From Bacteroidia bacterium (GTDB taxonomy: Bacteria; Bacteroidota; Bacteroidia; UKL13-3), in the NCBI GenBank assembly GCA_041675505.1, contig JBAYTR010000010.1, forward strand, positions 67,895 through 131,894: a DNA stretch of 64,000 bases, read 5' to 3'. Shown here piece by piece: positions 14,460 through 24,284 of this stretch (positions are counted from its first letter, which is position 1; each line of letters opens with the position of its first letter). The notes under the pieces are model-generated. The model was given only the letters and a program-made list of their open reading frames with translations. It made no database searches and was not told the origin of the DNA. The position numbers and the translations under genes were made by a program.

Positions 14460-15212
14460 TTATTTCCATTTCAGAAGTGTCTTTTCAAAAAGATAAATGA
14501 TTCTCGAAAACAAAAGAGCCAAAAGAATTATGCAGATTACAGCAGCCAAAACCAACGAAACATCATAAGTTCCACCAGCTTTAAAAACCCTATGTCCCAA
14601 ACCTTCGTGGGCTGAAATAAATTCGGCAATGAAGGCACCAAGTAAAGCAAAACTAATGTTCAGTTTAAGCGAATTAAAAAGCCAAACCAATGAAGAAGGC
14701 ACGATTAGTTTTGAAAATATCTGCGTCCGTGATGCTCCAAAGGAGTGAAACAGTTTTATTTGTTGAACATCAACTTGTCTTGCACCTTCATAGGATTGAG
14801 TGATTGCAATTACTACTGTTGAAAGTGCAGCCATTATAACCTTTGCATACATACCAGTTCCAAACCACATTATCATCATAGGTGCAATGGAAAAAATTGG
14901 AATTGCTCCAATTGCAATGATGTAAGGTCTTGTCAAGTCAGCAACTCGTTTTGAATACCAAAGGGAAAGTCCGATTGCTGCACCGCAAATGTTGCCAATT
15001 AGAAAACCATAAATCGCTTCCTGTCCTGTAATAAAAATGTCCCTTGGTAAAATACCATTGGAGATGTTTTCAATCAGCGAATGAAAAACTTTGGATGGAG
15101 AAGAAAACAAAAAGAGTTTCTTTTCAGTAGTTGAAATTACAAACTGCCATAACAGCAAGAAAACTGTTAATGGCAACAAACCCAAAATGATACTTATGAT
15201 TTTTCTTTTCAT
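14460..15212 (-). CDS. ABC transporter permease, NitT/TauT (SsuC-like) family
   Basis: Six-TM binding-protein-dependent permease with the EAA-like loop SYEGARQVDVQQIKLFHSFGASRTQIF. The ATG at 15212 forms an ATGA overlap with the upstream stop. Confidence 0.85.
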   Translation of the reverse strand: MKRKIISIILGLLPLTVFLLLWQFVISTTEKKLFLFSSPSKVFHSLIENISNGILPRDIFITGQEAIYGFLIGNICGAAIGLSLWYSKRVADLTRPYIIAIGAIPIFSIAPMMIMWFGTGMYAKVIMAALSTVVIAITQSYEGARQVDVQQIKLFHSFGASRTQIFSKLIVPSSLVWLFNSLKLNISFALLGAFIAEFISAHEGLGHRVFKAGGTYDVSLVLAAVICIILLALLFSRIIYLFEKTLLKWK

Positions 15213-15970
15213 TGTTCGTCTTGCTTTGGAAGTGATTGCCACATTTCAGTAAAGTATTTAGAAAACTTTTGGTCTTGCTTAACTGAAATTGGACTTCTCT
15301 TTTCTACATCAAAAGTTATCTGTAATTCCTTGAATGTTTCGTTTGGCTTGTGATTAAAAATTATTGTCCTATCGCTTACTGTTATTGCTTCATCAATGTC
15401 GTGAGTAATCAGTAAAACAGTTTTGTGATTCTCTTTTGACAAAGCATGTATTTGTGCTTGTAGTTCAAGCCTCGTGTTGTAATCAATTGCTGAAAATGGT
15501 TCGTCCAAAAGCATTATTTCAGAATCTAACATCAGTGTTCTGATAAGAGCAACTTTTTGTCTTTCACCGCCTGAAAGTTGTGAGGGATAACTATGAACCA
15601 AATTTGAGATGCCAAAGCGTTTCAAATACTGCATTACATTTTCTTTTGTTGAGGAATTTATTTTGCCTTGAATTTCAATACCGACAATTATGTTTTGATA
15701 AACTGTTTTCCAAGGGAGCAATAAATCCTTTTGCATCATGTATGCTATTGCAGTTCTCCTGTCTGCAATGTGGTCAAGTTTTACTTCTCCGCTATATTCA
15801 TTGTCAAGTCCGATTATCAAGTTGAAAAGAGTTGTTTTCCCACAACCATTTGGCCCCAAAATGGAAACAAACTCCCCTGAACGAATAGTGAGATTGAGGT
15901 TTTTAAAAACCTCAACGTTACCCGTTGGAGTGCTAAATGACTTGGTTATGTTTTTTAACTCAATGTTCAT
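15209..15970 (-). CDS. ABC transporter ATP-binding protein, NitT/TauT (SsuB/TauB-like) family
   Basis: Walker A GPNGCGKTT, signature LSGGERQKVAL, Walker B LLDEPFSAID and H-loop ITHD. Confidence 0.9.
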   Translation of the reverse strand: MNIELKNITKSFSTPTGNVEVFKNLNLTIRSGEFVSILGPNGCGKTTLFNLIIGLDNEYSGEVKLDHIADRRTAIAYMMQKDLLLPWKTVYQNIIVGIEIQGKINSSTKENVMQYLKRFGISNLVHSYPSQLSGGERQKVALIRTLMLDSEIMLLDEPFSAIDYNTRLELQAQIHALSKENHKTVLLITHDIDEAITVSDRTIIFNHKPNETFKELQITFDVEKRSPISVKQDQKFSKYFTEMWQSLPKQDEQ

Positions 15971-17514
15971 TAGTGCTTGACAATTTCCTTTTGTGCATTT
16001 GTAACTCTTGATTTTGCAAATGTCGCTTTAGAATAAATTTGATTAAATATTTTATAGCAATATGTTTCTTCTTTATCTCTCAAGGAAAATTGAGAATTGT
16101 TTTTTTGAATGTTTTGATATTCTTCTTCACTCAAATTGTTGTTTGCAAATTCATGTAGCAAACCCTTTCCTCTTTCAACGCCTCCAATTCCAGCCCCTTC
16201 CATCAAAGTCATTTTCTCTCTCGAATAAATGTAGTCAGGCAATAAATCTTTAAATGCTTCTCTCAAAACAAACTTTGTTGTTGTATCTCCTGTTTTTGTC
16301 TTTGCCACTTTTAAAGACGGATGAATGCTCAAAGCATATTCAACTAAAGTTCTGTCAAGAAAGGGTTCACGAACTTCAACGGCATATTTCATTCCTGTTT
16401 TGTCAACTCTCAAAAGTTGTGTCCTGTATAAATCGTTTAGAAGATTTTTAATTTCATTTTGAAATTCTGTTTCATCAGGAAGGGAAAGAAAATCACCATA
16501 GCCGCCAAATATTTCATCGCTGCCCTCGCCACACAAAACAATTTTGAAACCTTTGTCGTGTGCTAACTCTGCCAATTTCATTGAAAGTAAAGAGCCACGA
16601 ATAGGATTTGGTTCAAATGTCTCAATGGAATAAATCACATCAGGAACATTTTGAAGCAAATTTTCTTTGCTTGTTTTAATATGATGAAACTTCAAATTCA
16701 AATCATTGCAAAGTCGCTTTGCATAAATCACGTCTTCGCCTGAATCTTCACCGACAATTAAAGCTGTAACATCATTGTGATAACTGCAACACAATAAATG
16801 AACTATTGAACTGTCAATGCCACCACTTAAAAAAGTAGCAATAGGCAAATCTGTTTCAACTCTTTTCTTTACAGCCAATTCAACAAGTTCACGAACATTA
16901 TTTGTAATTGTGCTTACTGAATCAGTATTCCATTTTGTGCTTGGCGTTTTATAATACTGGAAAACTCCTTCATTGGTTATGTAGTGTGCTGGTTTAAGTT
17001 CTTCAAATGTTTCTACTTCCAAATCAGTAAAGGATTTCATTTCAGAAGAAATATAAACTACATTCTCACTCTTGCAGTAGAAGAATGGTTTCACTCCAAA
17101 AAAATCTCTTGCTCCGAAAAACTTATTTTGAACGGAATCATAAATTAGAAATGCAAACATTCCTTCTAACTGCTGCAAGAAATTTATTCCGTGTTCTTCA
17201 TAAAGATGAACCAAAACTTCTGTGTCGCAATCTGAAATAAACTTGTGTCCTTTCATTTGCAATTCTGATTTCAAATTTTTGTAGTTGTAAATCTCACCGT
17301 TAAAAACAACTCCTATTGTTTTGTTCTCATTGAAAAAAGGTTGTGTGCCATTTGGTCTGTCAACTATTTTAAGGCGAACACTTCCTAAGATTGAATTTCC
17401 TATTTGAACTTGTTTAGGTGCAGTATCTCCCCGATGCTCAATTTTTTTGAGCATAAACTCCATTTCTGTTTTGCCTTTTGGAGTAGGATTAATAATTGCT
17501 GCGATACCACACAT
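15970..17514 (-). CDS. Asparagine-synthetase-B-like class II glutamine amidotransferase with adenylating domain
   Basis: MCGIAAII Ntn nucleophile start and an SGGIDSS PP-loop, in the AsnB architecture; 514 aa. The substrate specificity is unknown. Confidence 0.8.
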   Translation of the reverse strand: MCGIAAIINPTPKGKTEMEFMLKKIEHRGDTAPKQVQIGNSILGSVRLKIVDRPNGTQPFFNENKTIGVVFNGEIYNYKNLKSELQMKGHKFISDCDTEVLVHLYEEHGINFLQQLEGMFAFLIYDSVQNKFFGARDFFGVKPFFYCKSENVVYISSEMKSFTDLEVETFEELKPAHYITNEGVFQYYKTPSTKWNTDSVSTITNNVRELVELAVKKRVETDLPIATFLSGGIDSSIVHLLCCSYHNDVTALIVGEDSGEDVIYAKRLCNDLNLKFHHIKTSKENLLQNVPDVIYSIETFEPNPIRGSLLSMKLAELAHDKGFKIVLCGEGSDEIFGGYGDFLSLPDETEFQNEIKNLLNDLYRTQLLRVDKTGMKYAVEVREPFLDRTLVEYALSIHPSLKVAKTKTGDTTTKFVLREAFKDLLPDYIYSREKMTLMEGAGIGGVERGKGLLHEFANNNLSEEEYQNIQKNNSQFSLRDKEETYCYKIFNQIYSKATFAKSRVTNAQKEIVKH

Positions 17515-17518
17515 TTTA

Positions 17519-18322
17519 TTATTTTTGTTCTTCTTTATTAAAATTTGAAAACCAAGGTCTGCTTCTTATTCCTTTACGAAAAGAGTAAATCTGTAAACTC
17601 GGAAGGTCGGGGGCAATCAATTCTTTTTCTTCATCCGATGTGTATGTGAGAAAAACATTTTGAAAAAAATTCTTTTCTACATACTGCTTTTCAATTTGAT
17701 TCATTGTAATGTAAGCATATGCCGATTCATCAGTTGAATTAAAACGCAAGTCGCCAAAAATTTGATTGTTTGAATATCTGTAAGAATGTTTACCTGCTGA
17801 TTTTTTTAAAAGTTCAAATGATTCTCTACCTTTTAAAAACTCTGGTATGTTATGACTTCCATTCTCATTTATAATTGCATTGATTAATGCATTCATGTCT
17901 TTTAAGTGATGTGATTTTGCAAAAGGCATTAGCACTTCGGACATGAGAACATGTGTGTAATTGAATTCATTTACAACGTTTCTTATCCCTTTGAAATAGC
18001 TTTTGTAATCTTCGGGCTTATAGCCATTAAGCATTGCATGTGTGTCAGTAAAAATTAATGTTAGCTGAGCATCCAATTTGTAATGCTTTTCAATAACTCG
18101 CAGAAAACCGAAAAGATTTAGCAACGCATCAAAGTCGTATTTGTCGGGGTACTTTTTATCGGATGCGCCCCAATATGAAATGAAACGAATATATTTCTTG
18201 TTATGCTTTACTCTTTCATTAACATACTTATCTAACTCCGCAATTTGTTTCTTGCGAACCTCAATCTTTTTTGCTGCTAAAAAAGAGCCGATTGTTTTTC
18301 CGTTTCGCAAATTGCTATTCAT
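17519..18322 (-). CDS. Hypothetical protein (267 aa), family not recognised
   Basis: AT-rich ORF coupled to its neighbours by an 8-bp overlap upstream and a 4-bp gap downstream. Confidence 0.6.
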   Translation of the reverse strand: MNSNLRNGKTIGSFLAAKKIEVRKKQIAELDKYVNERVKHNKKYIRFISYWGASDKKYPDKYDFDALLNLFGFLRVIEKHYKLDAQLTLIFTDTHAMLNGYKPEDYKSYFKGIRNVVNEFNYTHVLMSEVLMPFAKSHHLKDMNALINAIINENGSHNIPEFLKGRESFELLKKSAGKHSYRYSNNQIFGDLRFNSTDESAYAYITMNQIEKQYVEKNFFQNVFLTYTSDEEKELIAPDLPSLQIYSFRKGIRSRPWFSNFNKEEQK

Positions 18323-20189
18323 TGCGATAAAAATATTTGCTTTCGTGTTTTAGTTTAAACAATTCCCGTGAAGACAAAAAAACAATAACTAAACAAATTA
18401 AGAAACAATAAAAAATATAATTGCCATATTTAATTGTATGTAAAACTTCTTTGTATTCTATAGGGTCGCTATTCGGAACAACTTCTTGCCTTGCAAATTC
18501 ATGTTTCAATTCATCTAATTTTGGAGTTTTAGGATGTAAAATGTGAAACATACTTGATGTAATCTCAAGTAAAATAAATAACGAGCCTATAAAGTAAAGT
18601 AACGTGGGTTTTCTTACATGCTTCCATAATGAACTTTCTATAAACAGTCGAAAGTTTTCAACTTTATTAGTGAACAGTTTTAAGAGATATAAAAAGGGCA
18701 ACAATGGTGTTAAAAATATTCGCCAACCTGCCCACTTTTTTGTGTGTAACGTTTTTCTTTCAAGTTCAAAATAATGCTTTTCATTTTGACGATATTCAGC
18801 TAACAAATCATCAGCTACGAACAAACTGTAATCAATAGTTTGAGGAACAGGTATGCCCTCAGCCCTATATCGCAAAAGCGTTAATTCTTTCAAATCATCT
18901 TTAATCGGATTAGTTTTTGAGTAATACAAATTGCCAATATCTCTCCACTCTCTTAATCTATCTACATAGTATTTAAGAATTTCTTCAAGTGAAAATTTCT
19001 CTTTTTTATTATTGATAAGAAACTGGATATAACTTTTAATAGTTTCATCTGCGATTAAGAGGTTAAGCAATTCGTCTTGGGTATCATCATCATATTTGAG
19101 TTTTGTTTTCAGAAAGTGAATTAAGCCCGTTGTATCGCTTTTCTTTAGATACGAATGAATTCTGTGTAAATTTTTATCAATGCCGTAGAGCAACCCTTTA
19201 AGTTTTTCTGAATTTTCAGGTGCATTATTACCTAAGATGCCCGTAAACATGAAACTTTGATCGTTGTCATACGCTAAGTTTTCTAATTCAATAATTTTTT
19301 TGTTTGCTTCTCCATTATGCTTATCAAGTAAGAAATCAATACTTATAAAATCACATGAGAATGAGACAGAATTATTGCAATAGTCATCGTTATCTACTTC
19401 TTCGTCAATGGTTCCATTATTTTTATATGTTTTTTTACTTACTTTACGAAGTTCATATCCAAAATCTTTTCTTTCTTCTACCAATGTAGATGTAGATGTT
19501 TTGTATTGCTCATAATAGATATGACCAATACAAAATCCTGTTGAAGGAGTATCATAACAGATGATTGATTGAGTAATATTTTCTTTTCCGTATTGAGACG
19601 GAAAATTTTGTGGATTCTTATATAATCTACCTAAGTCATTAGACGAACTAGTTAAATCTCCACTTCCTACAGCCAGAAAAGCAATTTTTGAAACTAATCC
19701 ACCAATAACCTTTGTATTGGTTTTTAATATTTTCTCTTTAAAGAGGTTTACCCCATTCTCTTTAAAGACTAAATTGTTACTATTGTCAACATCTAAACAT
19801 TGTGAAAGATTGAGATTAAACTCTTTATTACAAATATCTTTCTTTGTTTTAATGTCAAGCAAGTCCTGAAACTTTTTAAGTTCTGCTTGTAGCTTGGTGG
19901 CATCGCAATGGTTCAAATAGATAAGATGAGATGGGTCGCAAATGGCTGCGTCTGCTAAACCAAGCAAAACGGAAAAGGTTGCAAATCCATCACCCTTTAA
20001 TTTCTTGCTCTGGTCAAACCTGAAATCATTTTTTGTTCCAATTATAACTACTTCTAATTCCGAAAATGGTGTGTCATGGAAATCATTGCCATAGTATGCA
20101 ACATAAAATGGAAGGTATAATACCGTGTCAGTTGATACGGCAATTTCAAGTTTGTCTTTTGTTCGTATGGAAGAAAATCCTGAATCCAT
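18315..20189 (-). CDS. Membrane-anchored protein with an N-terminal NMT1/THI5-like (SBP-fold) domain and three C-terminal TM helices
   Basis: N-terminal LYLPFYVAYYGNDF...GDGFATFSVLLGLADAAICDP parallels IYLPFYIAQEKGFF...GNDDQVFATVLKGEAQFGIGDP in the adjacent lipoprotein SBP. The C-terminus carries hydrophobic helices (WAGWRIFLTPLLPFLYLL, LLYFIGSLFILLEI, IFYCFLICLVIVFL). Confidence 0.6.
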   Translation of the reverse strand: MDSGFSSIRTKDKLEIAVSTDTVLYLPFYVAYYGNDFHDTPFSELEVVIIGTKNDFRFDQSKKLKGDGFATFSVLLGLADAAICDPSHLIYLNHCDATKLQAELKKFQDLLDIKTKKDICNKEFNLNLSQCLDVDNSNNLVFKENGVNLFKEKILKTNTKVIGGLVSKIAFLAVGSGDLTSSSNDLGRLYKNPQNFPSQYGKENITQSIICYDTPSTGFCIGHIYYEQYKTSTSTLVEERKDFGYELRKVSKKTYKNNGTIDEEVDNDDYCNNSVSFSCDFISIDFLLDKHNGEANKKIIELENLAYDNDQSFMFTGILGNNAPENSEKLKGLLYGIDKNLHRIHSYLKKSDTTGLIHFLKTKLKYDDDTQDELLNLLIADETIKSYIQFLINNKKEKFSLEEILKYYVDRLREWRDIGNLYYSKTNPIKDDLKELTLLRYRAEGIPVPQTIDYSLFVADDLLAEYRQNEKHYFELERKTLHTKKWAGWRIFLTPLLPFLYLLKLFTNKVENFRLFIESSLWKHVRKPTLLYFIGSLFILLEITSSMFHILHPKTPKLDELKHEFARQEVVPNSDPIEYKEVLHTIKYGNYIFYCFLICLVIVFLSSRELFKLKHESKYFYRNE

Positions 20190-20191
20190 AT

Positions 20192-21205
20192 TTAATTTGT
20201 CTTGGTATCTGAAATAGATTTTTCGGCAAAGGAATTATCTACTGCATCTGATGTTGGTTTCATTTCCTTCATGTCGCCTATATCAACTCTTACTTGTATC
20301 GCTTTCTGCCAAGCTTCATCACTCATTACAGCATGGTCTGGAATTGTTTTATCTGCTACCATTCTTTTTACAGCATTTGCAACAACTGCTTTGTCAAGGT
20401 TGGGGAAAAGTTTTGCTGCAATTTCTGCCGTTCCTGCTTCATCTGTGTGGCAATACTGTAATGCCTTTTCAATTGCGTTTACAAATTTTTGAACAGTTTC
20501 CTTATTGGCGTTTATGTATTCCTCTGTCGTTGTTAAGCCAGTGAAAGCAAATCTTCCATAAAACTGCGGTGAGGAGTAAACAACTTTGTAACCTTTACTT
20601 TCAGCTATTGATGTTCCTGGTTCTAAGTCCATCGCAATATCGGCACTTCCATTTTCAAGTAAAGCCAACTGTGAACCAATTGGGGCTTGAACAATGATTG
20701 TGTTTTTTAATAAATCTCCTCCTTTCATGAGTGTCTTTTTCATCAAAGCGTAATTTGTTGACGGGTCGGGGAATGTTCCAACTTTCAAACCAGCCAAATC
20801 ACCAGGCTGTTCTATGGTTTTGATGTTATCCTTGTTTGTTACACCCCAAATTGTTACTCCGTCAACGATGGAACCAATTACTTTTCCTTTTGCTCCTTTC
20901 TCTCGTGATATGGCAGTGAATACAGGGTCGCCAATTCCAAATTGTGCTTCGCCTTTCAAAACGGTTGCAAAAACCTGGTCGTCATTACCTGAAAACTTTA
21001 CAGTAATTTCAAGTCCTTCGTCTTTGAAAAAACCCTTCTCCTGTGCAATGTAGAAAGGTAGGTAAATTAGATACTTCTCTTGTCCCCACTGCGCTACTAT
21101 TACTTTGGTGACTTCGGTGGTTTTTGGCTTTTCAGTGTTGCATGAATTGCATCCTCCCAAAATGATTGTGAGAACCAGTAATGCTGCTAAAACTATTTTA
21201 TTCAT
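20192..21205 (-). CDS. ABC transporter substrate-binding lipoprotein, NMT1/THI5-like (NitT/TauT family)
   Basis: Lipoprotein signal LVLTIILGGCNSC followed by an SBP of the SsuA/THI5 type. Confidence 0.75.
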   Translation of the reverse strand: MNKIVLAALLVLTIILGGCNSCNTEKPKTTEVTKVIVAQWGQEKYLIYLPFYIAQEKGFFKDEGLEITVKFSGNDDQVFATVLKGEAQFGIGDPVFTAISREKGAKGKVIGSIVDGVTIWGVTNKDNIKTIEQPGDLAGLKVGTFPDPSTNYALMKKTLMKGGDLLKNTIIVQAPIGSQLALLENGSADIAMDLEPGTSIAESKGYKVVYSSPQFYGRFAFTGLTTTEEYINANKETVQKFVNAIEKALQYCHTDEAGTAEIAAKLFPNLDKAVVANAVKRMVADKTIPDHAVMSDEAWQKAIQVRVDIGDMKEMKPTSDAVDNSFAEKSISDTKTN

Positions 21206-21261: not shown

Positions 21262-22788
21262 TCAACAATTGCTTCCCTTCTCAAAAAGTGTTTTCCAAAG
21301 GAATGTATCAAACAATTGTGCTAAGTTGTAAGTCAAAAACAAAAATAAAGTTCCTCCCAATAGTATTGCCAAAAACCATTTCCAAAGGTTGCTGTAAATT
21401 TTGAGTTTGCCATCAATGAATGCTACATCAGCATTGAATTCTTTATCATTATTAAGGATTCTCTGAATGTCTTCTTTTTCTAAAAGGTCAGTGTAGCGTT
21501 CTTTCAAATTTGTGTAGCTGTCAACGAATCTTTTGCGTTGCTCTTTCACTTCCCACTTTGCTACTAAGTAATAAAGGAATGAGCCGAACAAAAAAACAAT
21601 TGAAAGAACTGCTGTGTCAAGTGTAAACACATTTACAAAATCTCCATTGCCCAAAACTTTTATTGCGATTGCAGAAAAGTAAAAAGTGATTAGCGCCAAA
21701 GAACTTTTTTGAAAACCACTTGCAAATGTTTCAATGACTTTGTTTGCTCTGTTGTTGAAGTCAAGCAACTGGTCAGAAATTTTATTTCTGATTTCAATGT
21801 ATTGCTTGATGTTCTGCTTCTCGTAAACTTTGTAACTTGATTGAATAGATTGAAATGGATGCCCTTTCAATTCTAATTCACCACTATTTTCAAAGTGAAG
21901 TGAAATAATGTTTCTGGCTAAACCAATTTTATCATTGAGGTTTCCGCCACAATAAACCCAATTGTATATATTGAAATATTCTTTCGTTCCATCTATCGGC
22001 AATGCTTTTACATCAACTTTTCCTTTGATTGATTTATAACCGTTGATTTTAAATTCAAGTTCGTTGGCTTTTAGCGAAGTAATGTCAAACAAATAAACAA
22101 CGGAAAGCACAACAGCATAATGATTGAAAAGCAAACACAGCTTGCTGTGTTTTGCATTTTCAATTTGCAACTGAAAATCATCAGGCGTTAAGTTGTGTTC
22201 TTCAATGTTGGTGTAATTACTTGCTGAAAGAATGCTATCAAGGCGTTTATGCCTGTCAGCAAATGTTTGAGTAGGTGTGGTAGCACCTATTTGTGTAAAG
22301 AAAATATTTGCTGTATTGAATGGCTTGTCAAGATTCAACACTTTGAAGTTTACAAAAGGTGTGTTTGATAAAACACGATTGAAAACCGCATACGCTTCTG
22401 CTACTGACAAACTTTCAAGTGTTGCTGTGAAGATTTCTAAATCATATATAGAAATATTGTTTGAAATATTTCCTTTAGTGATTTTGAAGGTTGCTGTGAT
22501 TGGTTCGCCTTCCTGATGCAAATATTCCTTATCAAGTTCAGTTTTGAAATCGGTAAAATTTGAACTGGTTGAATAAAATGATTTTGGGTCGGCTTCTCCA
22601 AATTTGATTGTGAATGTTAATTGGTCGTTAGGCTCTAAAAAGTTGTAGGCGGTTTGAATGCTTGCAACCTCTGTCGATGAAAAGTTTGTTGCTGACAATT
22701 CACAAATAAATTCTTTGTCATTCTCTGAAACAGTTGTTTGAGAATAAGTAGAGAAAAAAGAGTGAATGAATTTATCAGCAAATTGCAT
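21262..22788 (-). CDS. Hypothetical protein with a soluble N-terminal 370 aa and three C-terminal TM helices (508 aa)
   Basis: Translationally coupled (TAATG) to the upstream NA37-like gene. It has no nucleotide-binding motifs. The TM helices are LALITFYFSAIAIKVL, AVLSIVFLFGSFLYYLVA and WFLAILLGGTLFLFLTY. Confidence 0.55.
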   Translation of the reverse strand: MQFADKFIHSFFSTYSQTTVSENDKEFICELSATNFSSTEVASIQTAYNFLEPNDQLTFTIKFGEADPKSFYSTSSNFTDFKTELDKEYLHQEGEPITATFKITKGNISNNISIYDLEIFTATLESLSVAEAYAVFNRVLSNTPFVNFKVLNLDKPFNTANIFFTQIGATTPTQTFADRHKRLDSILSASNYTNIEEHNLTPDDFQLQIENAKHSKLCLLFNHYAVVLSVVYLFDITSLKANELEFKINGYKSIKGKVDVKALPIDGTKEYFNIYNWVYCGGNLNDKIGLARNIISLHFENSGELELKGHPFQSIQSSYKVYEKQNIKQYIEIRNKISDQLLDFNNRANKVIETFASGFQKSSLALITFYFSAIAIKVLGNGDFVNVFTLDTAVLSIVFLFGSFLYYLVAKWEVKEQRKRFVDSYTNLKERYTDLLEKEDIQRILNNDKEFNADVAFIDGKLKIYSNLWKWFLAILLGGTLFLFLTYNLAQLFDTFLWKTLFEKGSNC

Positions 22789-23825
22789 TAGCTATTGCCG
22801 TTTTGTCTGTTGCTGAAATATTGATAGCCTTGTTCCGATTTGATTTTCACATATCTTGTTCCGTCTGCATCTTTTTCCGCTGTGATTATTGTTTCAAGGT
22901 TCGGAATATCTTCTTTCAAGTGCAAATCAATTTGGCTTGTCAAGGGGATAGTGTTTAGAAATTTTGCCCTAATCTTTGCCTTTACAATCGTGAACTGTTC
23001 GTCAAAAGGTGTTCTTGGTTTTGATGGCAATTGTCGGATTTGAGTTTTGATTTCTGCAACATCAAGGTTGGAATCGAAGGGAGTGTAGTTTCCAATTGCT
23101 GTGTCCAAATACTCTTGCATGTCAAAATTGTCGTTGGCTCTGAAATAGCGAACGGTGCTATTACGCAAATGCAAATAATCTTGTGGGTGTTTCTTTTTCA
23201 GTTTTGTAAATATGCCTTTGTCAATTGCTTCAAAAGCATTTTCTGTATTGTCCTCGTCTGAATAAACTTTGGTGAGTTCTAAAAAATCTTTCCACCAATA
23301 ATGAGAAAGGTTTGGATTGGTGTCATACACCAAAACATTAGTTACAGTTTGGTCGCTGTTTAGCGAACAAACAAATGCTTTGAAAACCTTTTTCTTTAAT
23401 GGAAGTCCTCTTGAAATAGTAAAATTTATTTCGTTTAAGAAATCGCTGTGGTCTGCTTTACAGATTACAAGTTTGTTGACGCTGTTTTCTGTTACCAATG
23501 CTTGAACAACAATTCCCTTTTGAATCTCAACTCCAAGTTTCAACATTTTTGCTTGTGCCTCTTGCTCTTTCTTCAAAAGTCGTGTTACTATTGTTGATGC
23601 AATTGCAGGAAATTCTTCACCTGCAATAATTTTCGTAATCTGTCCTCTTACTTCTGTTGTGTCGCTGTCAAACTTGAAGTTTCTACCACTGCTGCCTGTC
23701 GTAATGAGATTTACCAGTCCTTGCAAGTATGTGTTGAAGTCAGCACCATAAATTGATTGCTCAATTGATTCAACCGCTTGTTCATGAATGTCAACCTTAA
23801 ATATTTGTATGGCTGTTATGTCCAT
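22788..23825 (-). CDS. Nucleoid-associated protein NdpA/YejK-like (NA37 family), tentative
   Basis: MDITAIQIFKVDIHEQ resembles the YejK N-terminus MSLDINQIALHQLIKRDEQ, and the later block GIVVQALVTENSVNKLVICKADHSDFL parallels GGFVLFCHY...LLVAVL. The upstream 22 codons of the listed ORF look non-coding. Confidence 0.45.
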   Translation of the reverse strand: MDITAIQIFKVDIHEQAVESIEQSIYGADFNTYLQGLVNLITTGSSGRNFKFDSDTTEVRGQITKIIAGEEFPAIASTIVTRLLKKEQEAQAKMLKLGVEIQKGIVVQALVTENSVNKLVICKADHSDFLNEINFTISRGLPLKKKVFKAFVCSLNSDQTVTNVLVYDTNPNLSHYWWKDFLELTKVYSDEDNTENAFEAIDKGIFTKLKKKHPQDYLHLRNSTVRYFRANDNFDMQEYLDTAIGNYTPFDSNLDVAEIKTQIRQLPSKPRTPFDEQFTIVKAKIRAKFLNTIPLTSQIDLHLKEDIPNLETIITAEKDADGTRYVKIKSEQGYQYFSNRQNGNS

Positions 23826-24284
23826 GTTGTATATTTTAAAATGTGAAAAATTGTTGGTTAACGGGTGCTGATAAAGCGTTGGCGATTGCACACTTTTGAT
23901 TTCGCCTTTGGGTTGGCTTGTACGTGAGCTGCAAATGCAAATGTGTACTGGTGTTTTTTGTTTTCCAGCTGAAGCGTTTACAATTCAAGGAGGTGTCGTT
24001 GGTGTCAAGTTTTGTCAAAAAGTTCATTTTTCATCTGTCAGTTTAATGTTAACACTGTTGCCATAGGGTTTCCGGCAGCTTTTTTATATGCGAAGGTTTG
24101 CCTGGTTTTGTAAATATATCAATTTGCTCATAACTCTTCAAAAAGGGGGTTGTTTTTTGAATACTTTGTGATGTAAATCGCTTTGAAAATCTTGGCCAAT
24201 TAGGCCACGGGAATTTGCAAGACAGGTGAACAGGTTAGGTTGCATAGCATATTGGTTTTCAACGGCAAATTAGAAGGTTTTTTA

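Follow-up and report, generated by a model that had tools for sequence, protein, structure and literature searches.

An overlapping gene pair for a remote YejK relative and a three-helix membrane protein: probably a mobile, divergent anti-phage module

The two genes and their junction

The window, that is, the whole stretch of 64,000 nucleotides that was analysed, carries two overlapping genes on its minus strand, called gene A and gene B here (Table 1). Both open reading frames lie where an earlier note on this DNA had placed them. The nucleotide that the note took to be shared by the stop of the first gene and the start of the second is there as well: the plus strand reads CATTA at the junction, which is TAATG on the coding strand, and base 22788 is common to the stop codon of gene A and the start codon of gene B. 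The length given for the first product (346 aa) had to be corrected to 345 aa, counted from the ATG at 23825. A GTG further upstream, at 23891, would extend this product to 367 aa; the homologues of gene A measure 338–345 aa, and Met-1 is invariant at the position of the ATG.

Table 1. Positions of the gene pair and its parts in the window.
Feature	Coordinates	Strand	Length	Remark
Gene A, predicted NA37/YejK-fold protein, proposed DNA-bound sensor	22788..23825	minus	345 aa	
Start and stop codons of gene A	ATG at 23825; TAA at 22790-22788	minus		
TAATG stop/start overlap, translational-coupling junction	22786..22790	minus		Read from sequence
Gene B, membrane protein, proposed effector	21262..22788	minus	508 aa	
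Part of gene B coding for the membrane module (residues ~362-508)	21262..21705	minus		Among the better conserved parts

Both reading frames are real genes: at E ≤ 1e-3, sequence searches brought up 353 and 154 homologues, and the gene B family comprises 1,070 clusters at 50% identity. A scan for sigma-70 promoters and terminators was uninformative, as the counts equalled the shuffled expectation, and the Bacteroidota -7 motif TAnnTTTG was not found directly upstream of gene A.

A remote YejK relative and a protein with three membrane helices

The product of gene A had been proposed to be an NA37/YejK-type protein on the basis of a similarity that was itself called weak, and the searches agree on both counts. 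The match to Pfam PF04245 (NA37) has an E-value of 1.4e-4; with 21.8 bits it lies below the gathering cut-off of 24.6 bits, though it spans residues 46–286. Only nine of 52 members of the gene A family reach PF04245 at E ≤ 0.01 (the best with 8e-7), and the members from E. coli, Acinetobacter and Vibrio have no Pfam NA37 match. The profile of the family aligned by hhalign with canonical NA37 sequences over 248 columns, with a probability of 91% and E=1e-6. An AlphaFold2 model of the protein (pLDDT 87) was compared with the PDB using Foldseek, and the sole significant match was E. coli YejK 9be2 (E=2e-5, prob 1.0, TM 0.43), with which gene A shares 14% sequence identity. Judged from Pfam, hhalign and Foldseek together, gene A can be assigned to the NA37/YejK superfamily, as a remote homologue only and with a predicted fold that is shared with YejK. 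The overall fold and length are those of the housekeeping nucleoid-associated protein YejK/NdpA (PF04245, 9be2). By contrast with housekeeping YejK, gene A is an accessory, mobile gene that is coupled to a membrane partner in every case.

For the 508-aa product of gene B, the earlier note had described a long soluble N-terminal region with no recognisable motif, three hydrophobic helices with a charged helix among them, and no NTPase motifs. This description holds. Hydropathy places TM1 at ~362–381, TM2 at ~390–410 and TM3 at ~468–492. The soluble region ahead of TM1 measures ~360 aa, and a charged helical hairpin lies between TM2 and TM3 at residues 411–465. The AlphaFold2 model (pLDDT 86) agrees with hydropathy on the topology, and a 70-residue helix (311–381) in this model continues into TM1. 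Given the three hydrophobic helices and the positive charges after TM2, gene B encodes a membrane protein with a cytoplasmic N-domain. This domain has a net charge of -10 over 355 aa and a pI of 5.4. Virtually every one of 339 homologues has a negatively charged N-domain (median net charge -11), and the E. coli homologue carries -21. The acidity in the protein of the window is modest, and was counted against a defence role of the pair.

Column conservation in the gene B family is 0.52–0.58 at residues 200–470 vs 0.33 at residues 1–200, and the E. coli homologue is 35% identical over residues 184–488. The invariant residues are W412, E413, Q417, R420, F421, Y425, K429, R431, Y432 and D434.

Whether the protein belongs to a known transporter or enzyme family had been put forward as a check. 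No family in Pfam, NCBIfam or PADLOC matched beyond a weak hit to RTasSLATT, neither Walker A nor Walker B was found, and the model had no fold match in the PDB or BFVD (best E=0.03). A transporter or an enzyme was rejected on these grounds. The RTasSLATT match of PADLOC (E=0.005, 14.6 bits) and that of TIGR04402 (E=0.04, 14 bits vs a cut-off of 70) cover residues 361–446, and the Pfam SLATT models match none of 52 gene B family members at E ≤ 0.05. Identification of the membrane module as a SLATT domain was rejected, since the matches are sub-threshold, and they are treated as a topological resemblance. The SLATT two-TM effectors, a subject of Burroughs et al. in 2015, reportedly combine a TM hairpin with a conserved cytoplasmic helix behind it, an arrangement that sits C-terminally in conflict-system proteins. 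Gene B likewise has a two-TM hairpin and a conserved cytoplasmic helix at its C-terminus, but it differs from the SLATT effectors in the additional third TM helix.

Linkage, neighbourhoods and mobility of the pair

Of 45 loci, which come from at least six phyla, 43 have gene A directly upstream of gene B and on the same strand; the other two are cut by contig ends. The junction is tight in all 39 intact pairs of other genomes, 26 of which overlap (12 by 1 nt and 11 by 4 nt), while the non-overlapping ones are separated by gaps of 1–23 nt. The pairwise distances of A and B correlate with r=0.87, a value that was reached in none of 2000 permutations. Taken together, adjacency, junctions and distance correlation make A and B an obligate pair, whose co-occurrence in other genomes the earlier note had named as a check.

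The same note placed the pair at the head of an island operon. The cluster downstream in the window encodes an NMT1-type binding protein (SBP), unknown proteins of 624 aa and 267 aa, an AsnB-like amidotransferase, an ABC ATPase and a permease. If A and B were the first two genes of this operon, they would work together with the transport and biosynthesis cluster. The arrangement invites such an explanation, as all genes lie on one strand, the gap between gene B and the gene after it measures only 56 nt and contains no terminator-like hairpin, and low GC is common to pair and cluster across 14.4–24 kb. However, in none of 45 other genomes do the SBP, 624-aa, 267-aa, AsnB and ABC genes lie beside the pair; the sole hits, to a generic ABC ATPase in two loci, are several kb away from it. 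Even the closest relatives of the pair, at 83% and 77% identity, have entirely different neighbours. Since other genomes do not conserve these neighbours, membership in the ABC/AsnB operon was rejected. Conservation already contradicts this explanation, and we consider it highly improbable. The link to the ABC/AsnB cluster is a local juxtaposition within one low-GC stretch, and the pair is an autonomous module rather than the head of that cluster.

The neighbours of the relatives are of other kinds. The 83%-identical relative has a gene for AbiJ (9e-30) at a distance of 2.3 kb, and the 77%-identical one has PD-DExK/NucC-like and TIR-like genes nearby. Among the nearest neighbours elsewhere are HamB of Hachiman (2e-213), GajA/AriA/PtuA-type ATPases, GmrSD, the HpaII restriction enzyme and PIN_8, and also relaxase, DUF4099, DUF3945, Toprim_Crpt and integrase genes. 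Genes without a defence function make up the majority of these neighbours, and the top PADLOC families each match only two of 143 neighbours. The neighbours in the window itself are transport, biosynthesis and housekeeping genes and not defence genes. Both observations were counted against a defence role.

The pair occurs in Bacteroidota, Bacillota, Gammaproteobacteria, Campylobacterota, Desulfobacterota and Verrucomicrobiota, and most of the retrieved homologues come from Bacteroidota. Only 30 of 5,426 complete E. coli genomes have it. There, the orthologous pair (WP_032082908.1 for A and WP_170228383.1 for B, annotated as ‘nucleoid-associated protein’ and ‘hypothetical protein’) sits in an island that also carries a recombinase, an integrase and IS3; in strain NCTC86, for example, it lies at 531617-534384 of NZ_CP019778.1. 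A Mu-like phage carries the pair, and gene A and gene B match the PHROG families phrog_30064 (9e-35) and phrog_32650 (4e-45), respectively. A tblastn search with gene B gave no match in the GenBank phage and PLSDB plasmid collections, and IMG/VR gave only two loci. In the window, the pair lies in the low-GC stretch mentioned above, with 31–38% GC vs 42–49% in the flanks; neither a tRNA nor convincing flanking direct repeats were found at the borders of the island. In two loci (Prevotellaceae, Akkermansia), a separate canonical NA37 gene directly follows the pair. The patchy distribution over phyla, the rarity in E. coli, the Mu-like phage, the PHROG matches and the low GC show that the module is clearly accessory and horizontally mobile.

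Such mobility might also mean that the pair serves the mobile element itself. It would then be a maintenance or regulatory module with no role in immunity, in which the YejK-like protein organises or silences the DNA of the element or the host, and the membrane partner tethers DNA or the nucleoid protein to the envelope; NdpA2, from the Pseudomonas ICE PAPI-1, is the comparable protein. The study on NdpA2 (PMC8565334) indicates that the transfer of an ICE can be regulated by NA37 paralogues that it carries. The presence of the pair in the Mu-like phage and the E. coli integrative island, and the relaxase, integrase and related genes among its neighbours, fit this explanation. However, many sites of the pair, the one in the window included, have no element genes within 8 kb, and the pair does not travel with any fixed set of such genes. 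In addition, a translationally coupled partner with three TM helices is not a usual requirement of regulatory nucleoid proteins. The element context does not discriminate, since defence systems ride on such elements too. We regard a role confined to the mobile element as unlikely.

Comparison with known systems and a proposed mechanism

Systems composed of a YejK-like protein and a TM effector were validated experimentally against phage in 2026 (10.64898/2026.04.06.716658; PMC13092281). One of these is type II PANGU, a bicistronic system (Pag2A and Pag2B) in which the gene for a YejK-like nucleoid-associated protein comes first (bioRxiv 10.64898/2026.04.06.716658, Li et al., April 2026). Pag2B begins with an acidic domain (‘DMK’) and ends in a TM domain. 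Type II PANGU is spread across phyla, often near defence genes, and PANGU is sporadic in Bacteroidota (10.64898/2026.04.06.716658), whereas most of the retrieved homologues of the present family come from that phylum. Each of the two has a member in E. coli.

The PANGU pipeline selects nucleoid-associated proteins (NAPs) of at least 300 aa with E<1e-10 against an NdpA-domain HMM and an intergenic distance of <40 bp (10.64898/2026.04.06.716658). Gene A with its 345 aa is long enough, and the operon, with a non-NAP partner, is within the permitted distance, given the 1-nt overlap in the window and the overlaps or gaps (up to 23 nt) of all 39 intact homologous pairs. Gene B corresponds by description to a Pag2B-type partner, with a net charge of -10 in the N-domain and three C-terminal TMs. 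The E-value of gene A, 1.4e-4, refers to Pfam NA37, which is a different HMM, and the pipeline would probably miss the family. As the gene A family, its E. coli member included, mostly fails E ≤ 0.01 against Pfam NA37, it may lie outside PANGU Cluster 2, the comparison with Pag2A and Pag2B being one of description and not of sequence. Two unrelated pairs occur in E. coli, the orthologues of A and B and the DS-1 pair described below, and PANGU-Ecu could be either of them.

DS-1 (working ID D390), a validated two-gene system of E. coli (WP_000355468.1 and WP_000150292.1), was reported with DefensePredictor in Science in 2026 (PMC13092281), and some RefSeq records name it ‘nucleoid-associated anti-phage protein’. 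The layout is that of A and B: an NA37/YejK-domain protein is followed, after a 2-nt gap, by a partner with a soluble N-terminal region. The C-terminal hydrophobic helices of DS-1B are split by a charged helix, as in gene B, and DS-1 also resides on a mobile element, a lambdoid prophage, beside the antiterminator Q. However, DS-1A is a canonical NA37 protein (HHpred 100%, PMC13092281) with an N-terminal zinc ribbon, whereas gene A is a remote one, and the profile of the gene A family gave no significant match to DS-1A as a single sequence. DS-1B is also shorter (404 aa vs 508 aa). Homology between gene B and DS-1B was rejected, as three methods were negative: the HMM of the gene B family (340 sequences) scored -9.9 bits against DS-1B in hmmsearch, profile–profile hhalign of the two families gave a probability of 0.1%, and a further hhalign comparison against DS-1B (WP_000150292.1) gave E=0.47. 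The relatives of DS-1B found in metagenomes are only those at 75–100% identity, which is too close for a useful profile. The unlikeness of gene B to DS-1B was counted against the defence reading, as were the sub-cut-off score of gene A and the finding that PADLOC 2.0 has no model matching gene A. The E. coli orthologue of gene A, WP_032082908.1, appears in the DefensePredictor tables as a ‘Predicted novel defense gene’ with a mean log-odds of ~8 (PMC13092281).

The superfamily of gene A, the topology of gene B, the obligate linkage, the mobility, the defence neighbourhoods, the DefensePredictor listing and the architecture in common with PANGU and DS-1 all point to defence. By this analogy, the pair is probably a self-contained, mobile two-gene abortive-infection module with a nucleoid-associated protein as sensor and a membrane protein as effector, and most likely a divergent form of the ‘suicide’ systems against phage that were first reported in 2026. 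The likeness to two-gene defence modules, which the earlier note offered as an analogy, has in this way become the best-supported reading, owing to the validated systems of 2026 and to the defence-gene and mobile-element contexts.

The mechanism that we infer by analogy with PANGU and DS-1 would be as follows. The YejK-fold protein of gene A would normally be bound to chromosomal DNA, and gene B would reside in the inner membrane with its acidic N-terminal domain facing the cytoplasm. When a phage degrades or remodels the host DNA, the gene A protein would be released, and the free protein would bind the cytoplasmic domain of B. This contact would switch on the conserved module of TM1–TM2, amphipathic helix and TM3, which may be able to damage or depolarise the membrane. 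The infected cell would stop growing or die before phage progeny are made, and protection against the phage would result.

A toxin–antitoxin or addiction module would assign the opposite role to the nucleoid protein: B would be a membrane toxin that is restrained by the binding of A, loss of the locus would kill, and any effect on phage would be secondary. An overlapping two-gene operon with the membrane protein downstream, the patchy and mobile occurrence of the pair and the weak SLATT-type resemblance of the TM module would suit such a module. However, none of 52 gene B family members matches Pfam SLATT, and gene A is large (345 aa), with a predicted DNA-clamp fold, unlike typical antitoxins. 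In PANGU, which has the same architecture, neither gene alone is toxic, and the nucleoid protein is an activator, not an antitoxin (10.64898/2026.04.06.716658). We consider an addiction module quite unlikely.

Within the abortive-infection reading, the pair may belong to an independent lineage, the third one of membrane effectors that a nucleoid protein triggers, whose sequences would differ from those of both PANGU-Ecu and DS-1, a proposal that we make tentatively and hold to be slightly doubtful. In such a lineage, the sensor would have diverged so far from NA37 that HMM-based censuses miss it, the N-domain and the three-TM module of the effector would be without a solved or annotated relative, and the signal might be something other than phage-induced degradation of the genome.

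The idea that a protein coating the chromosome can act as a sensor of infection dates only from 2026 and comes from a few examples in Proteobacteria and Bacillota. The present pair shows the two-part design in a much more diverged form, with a sensor below the Pfam cut-off and a partner of no known family or fold, in at least six phyla and with good representation among the retrieved Bacteroidota sequences. The E. coli orthologue (WP_032082908.1/WP_170228383.1) would make testing simple. If the pair gave no protection against phage, a non-immune role for mobile YejK-like proteins would be indicated. If it is validated, any census of nucleoid-protein-based immunity built on the NA37 HMM is an undercount, and a structurally new membrane effector would become available for study. 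Should the pair indeed stand for a third lineage, its family, which has at least 1,000 clusters (50% identity) and is abundant among the retrieved Bacteroidota homologues, would amount to a large share of bacterial immunity that has gone unrecognised.

A YejK-like protein and its membrane partner

The NA37/YejK-like gene (gene A) and the membrane-protein gene that follows it (gene B) both lie on the minus strand, and their junction on the coding strand reads TAATG, with one base common to stop and start. Hydropathy analysis placed three hydrophobic segments in B, at residues ~362-381, ~390-410 and ~468-492. The coupled pair described in the earlier note was thus borne out, except that its length of 346 aa for gene A is off by one; the 367 aa also given there corresponds to an alternative GTG start at 23891. 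Since A homologues measure 338-345 aa and Met-1, at the ATG of gene A, is invariant in their alignment, the shorter product is likely.

Features of the pair and of the cluster downstream
Feature	Coordinates	Strand	Description
Gene A	ATG at 23825 to TAA at 22790-22788	minus	345 aa (likely)
Gene B	ATG at 22788-22786 to 21262	minus	508 aa
Low-GC cluster directly downstream of the pair	14460-21205	minus	NMT1/THI5-type binding lipoprotein to ABC permease
NMT1/THI5-type binding lipoprotein	within 14460-21205	minus	337 aa
624-aa protein	within 14460-21205	minus	C-terminal TM helices, no family
267-aa protein	within 14460-21205	minus	weak DIT1_PvcA match, E = 0.002
AsnB-like glutamine amidotransferase	within 14460-21205	minus	514 aa
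ABC ATPase and permease	within 14460-21205	minus	

The match of gene A to Pfam NA37 covers most of the domain and is marginal (E = 1.4e-4; 21.8 bits, below the cut-off of 24.6). Only nine of 52 A-family members reach E <= 0.01, and the match is absent in those from E. coli, Acinetobacter and Vibrio. The A-family profile aligned with canonical NA37 proteins over 248 columns (91% probability, E = 1e-6), and the sole significant PDB match of the AlphaFold2 model of A (pLDDT 87.1) was E. coli YejK (9be2; E = 2e-5, probability 1.0, TM 0.43). By these two matches the gene A product belongs to the YejK/NA37 superfamily, as a divergent member, and the relationship is real despite the marginal Pfam score. 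Gene A also matches a full-length PHROG family of unknown function, phrog_30064 (9e-35). No TM-like segment was found in A by hydropathy analysis, and neither protein sequence contains Walker motifs.

No family in Pfam, NCBIfam or PADLOC could be assigned to gene B, which matches the full-length PHROG family phrog_32650 (function unknown; 4e-45). Residues ~361-446 gave sub-threshold SLATT-type matches (PADLOC RTasSLATT, E = 0.005; TIGR04402, 14 bits with the cut-off at 70), and the Pfam SLATT models were matched by none of 52 B-family members. The AlphaFold2 model (mean pLDDT 86.3), which has no significant structural match in PDB or BFVD, consists of mixed alpha/beta domains as far as residue ~300, a helix of 70 residues (311-381) terminating as TM1, a TM2 that runs on into a charged helix (390-432), and another long helix (446-493) terminating as TM3. 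Because the positive residues KWEVKEQRKRF follow TM2 and the TM1-TM2 loop is short and uncharged, the positive-inside rule suggests that the N-domain and the helical hairpin are cytoplasmic and the C-terminal tail is outside. The N-domain is acidic (net charge -10 in the window protein, median -11 over 339 homologues, -21 in E. coli) and shows the lowest conservation within B, with a column identity of 0.33 against 0.52-0.58 at residues 200-470. W412, E413, Q417, R420, Y425, K429, R431 and D434 are invariant in the TM module. The third TM helix is not universal in the family, since the Vibrio (L041:7677-9086; 469 aa) and Arcobacter (L044:7626-9077; 483 aa) versions stop short of it. Past this helix, the E. 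coli NCTC86 homologue (WP_170228383.1, 572 aa; L050:10050-11768) ends in ~22 Pro-Gln repeats, presumably periplasmic, which are missing from the window's protein.

Linkage, mobility and genome neighbourhoods

When one genome was scanned for each species, 45 loci encoding a B homologue were found. An A homologue lies directly upstream on the same strand in 43, and the remaining two are interrupted by a contig end. Stop and start overlap in 26 of 39 intact pairs (by 1 nt in 12 pairs and by 4 nt in 11), and the gap is 1-23 nt in the rest. The pairwise distances among A proteins correlate strongly with those among B proteins (r = 0.87, a value reached in 0 of 2000 permutations), which indicates that A and B are passed on together. 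Judged from these sequences, the pair is an obligate, autonomous and mobile module. The A gene of Dyadobacter luteus (L006:5877-7995) is in two pieces, one covering profile positions 1-224 and the other 224-340, with ~1.1 kb between them, probably an insertion element disrupting the sensor gene, and one or both genes are frameshifted at L018, L019 and L042. At L025:9461-10498 (Prevotellaceae MAG) and L026:9281-10315 (Akkermansia MAG), the pair is directly followed by a third gene, whose product is a canonical NA37 protein (Pfam E = 4e-35 and 2e-31, respectively), so that two YejK-like genes, one divergent and one canonical, surround the membrane protein.

The earlier note had placed the pair at the head of an island operon, a claim that gained no support. 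The downstream genes resemble a small cluster for transport and biosynthesis and share a low-GC stretch with the pair (31-38% GC vs 42-49% outside), at the edges of which neither tRNA nor flanking repeats were found. None of these genes (binding protein, 624-aa, 267-aa, AsnB-like, ABC ATPase, permease) accompanies the pair elsewhere among the 45 loci, and relatives of the pair with 83% and 77% identity have quite different surroundings. The pair is therefore not, in any conserved sense, the head of this cluster, the common low-GC stretch being their one association, and that it belongs to a local operon is very improbable.

The 45 loci come from Bacteroidota (32 loci), Bacillota, Gammaproteobacteria, Campylobacterota, Desulfobacterota and Verrucomicrobiota, and an exhaustive profile search found 1,070 clusters of the B family at 50% identity. 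A complete pair, scoring 365 bits for A and 444 bits for B, also occurs on a 4.4-kb contig labelled Promethearchaeota MAG (L017, JAFGOA010000168.1), the result either of contamination during binning or of transfer to archaea. The E. coli orthologues are WP_032082908.1 (350 aa) and WP_170228383.1 (35% identity to the window's B over 315 residues, E = 2e-57), named 'nucleoid-associated protein' and 'hypothetical protein' in every record listed. Only 30 of the 5,426 complete E. coli genomes have them, in an island between ybaA and ffs with recombinase, integrase and IS3. The pair, with products of 379 aa and 502 aa and an overlap of 8 nt, is also carried by a Mu-like transposable phage (IMGVR_UViG_3300009379_000003, L072:8590-11230), in a moron-like position between the early (transposition) and packaging regions; the phage contig has genes for transposase, terminase, portal, protease and major head protein. 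Such settings might also suit a nucleoid protein that serves element maintenance and has a tether in the membrane, a reading which we consider unlikely.

An AbiJ homologue (9e-30) adjoins the 83%-identical relative, and PD-DExK/NucC-like and TIR-like proteins lie near the 77%-identical one. The 143 nearest neighbours at the 45 loci include Hachiman HamB (2e-213), GajA/AriA/PtuA-type ATPases, GmrSD, an HpaII restriction enzyme and PIN_8, together with relaxase, integrase, conjugative-transposon and plain housekeeping genes. These neighbourhoods point to conflict systems; the defence-island argument is suggestive rather than conclusive, since it draws on individual loci, and in the window itself the pair has no defence genes as neighbours.

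Relation to PANGU and DS-1

Two 2026 reports describe the same design. In PANGU, degradation of host DNA by phage T4 causes YejK-like nucleoid proteins to leave the nucleoid and activate a partner effector (10.64898/2026.04.06.716658). The E. coli type II system pairs the nucleoid protein Pag2A with Pag2B, whose acidic N-terminal 'DNA-mimicking' domain binds Pag2A at 19 nM and precedes a C-terminal TM domain; it acts by abortive infection, both genes are needed and neither is toxic alone (10.64898/2026.04.06.716658). A toxin-antitoxin module, which the overlapping genes might also bring to mind, is in our view still less likely than the maintenance function. DS-1, validated by DefensePredictor, comprises an NA37 protein of E. 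coli and, after it, a protein of 404 aa whose C-terminal helices are hydrophobic; the DefensePredictor tables also list WP_032082908.1, the orthologue of gene A, as a 'Predicted novel defense gene' (mean log-odds ~8) (PMC13092281). The DS-1 pair (hits H13-H72), unrelated to the window's, is present in 106 of 5,426 complete E. coli genomes, adjoins the antiterminator Q gene of lambdoid prophages, and is now named 'nucleoid-associated anti-phage protein' in some 2026 RefSeq records.

The B family shares an acidic N-domain with Pag2B as the preprint describes it. DS-1B has no similarity to the B family by HMM and profile-profile comparison, and DS-1A is a canonical NA37 protein whereas gene A is not. 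The bioinformatic filter of the PANGU preprint was NA37-HMM E<1e-10 (10.64898/2026.04.06.716658), which would probably exclude the A family, given the E-value of gene A and the few members that match Pfam NA37. On these grounds it is possible but rather doubtful that PANGU-Ecu, the E. coli PANGU system, and this family's E. coli pair are one and the same, and membership of the pair in either validated family is at present unproven or negative.

The folds, topology, linkage, mobility and contexts found here can be joined, by analogy with these systems, into a mechanism of which every dynamic step is conditional. A would reside on chromosomal DNA until nucleoid damage or remodelling by phage frees it. 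Freed A may then bind the cytoplasmic N-domain of B, whose low conservation fits a partner-specific interface, and so turn on the conserved module of TM1-TM2, amphipathic helix and TM3; loss of membrane integrity would abort the infection. The defence analogy of the earlier note gains support and a link to a named, very recent class, and a defence module of nucleoid-protein sensor and membrane effector is the reading that we moderately favour. The pair is best filed as a new, divergent, candidate variant of this kind. The concept has already been published; the A/B family is large and spans several phyla, its sensor is mostly missed by curated NA37 thresholds, and no structural relative of its effector is known. 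The E. coli orthologue makes the family directly testable.
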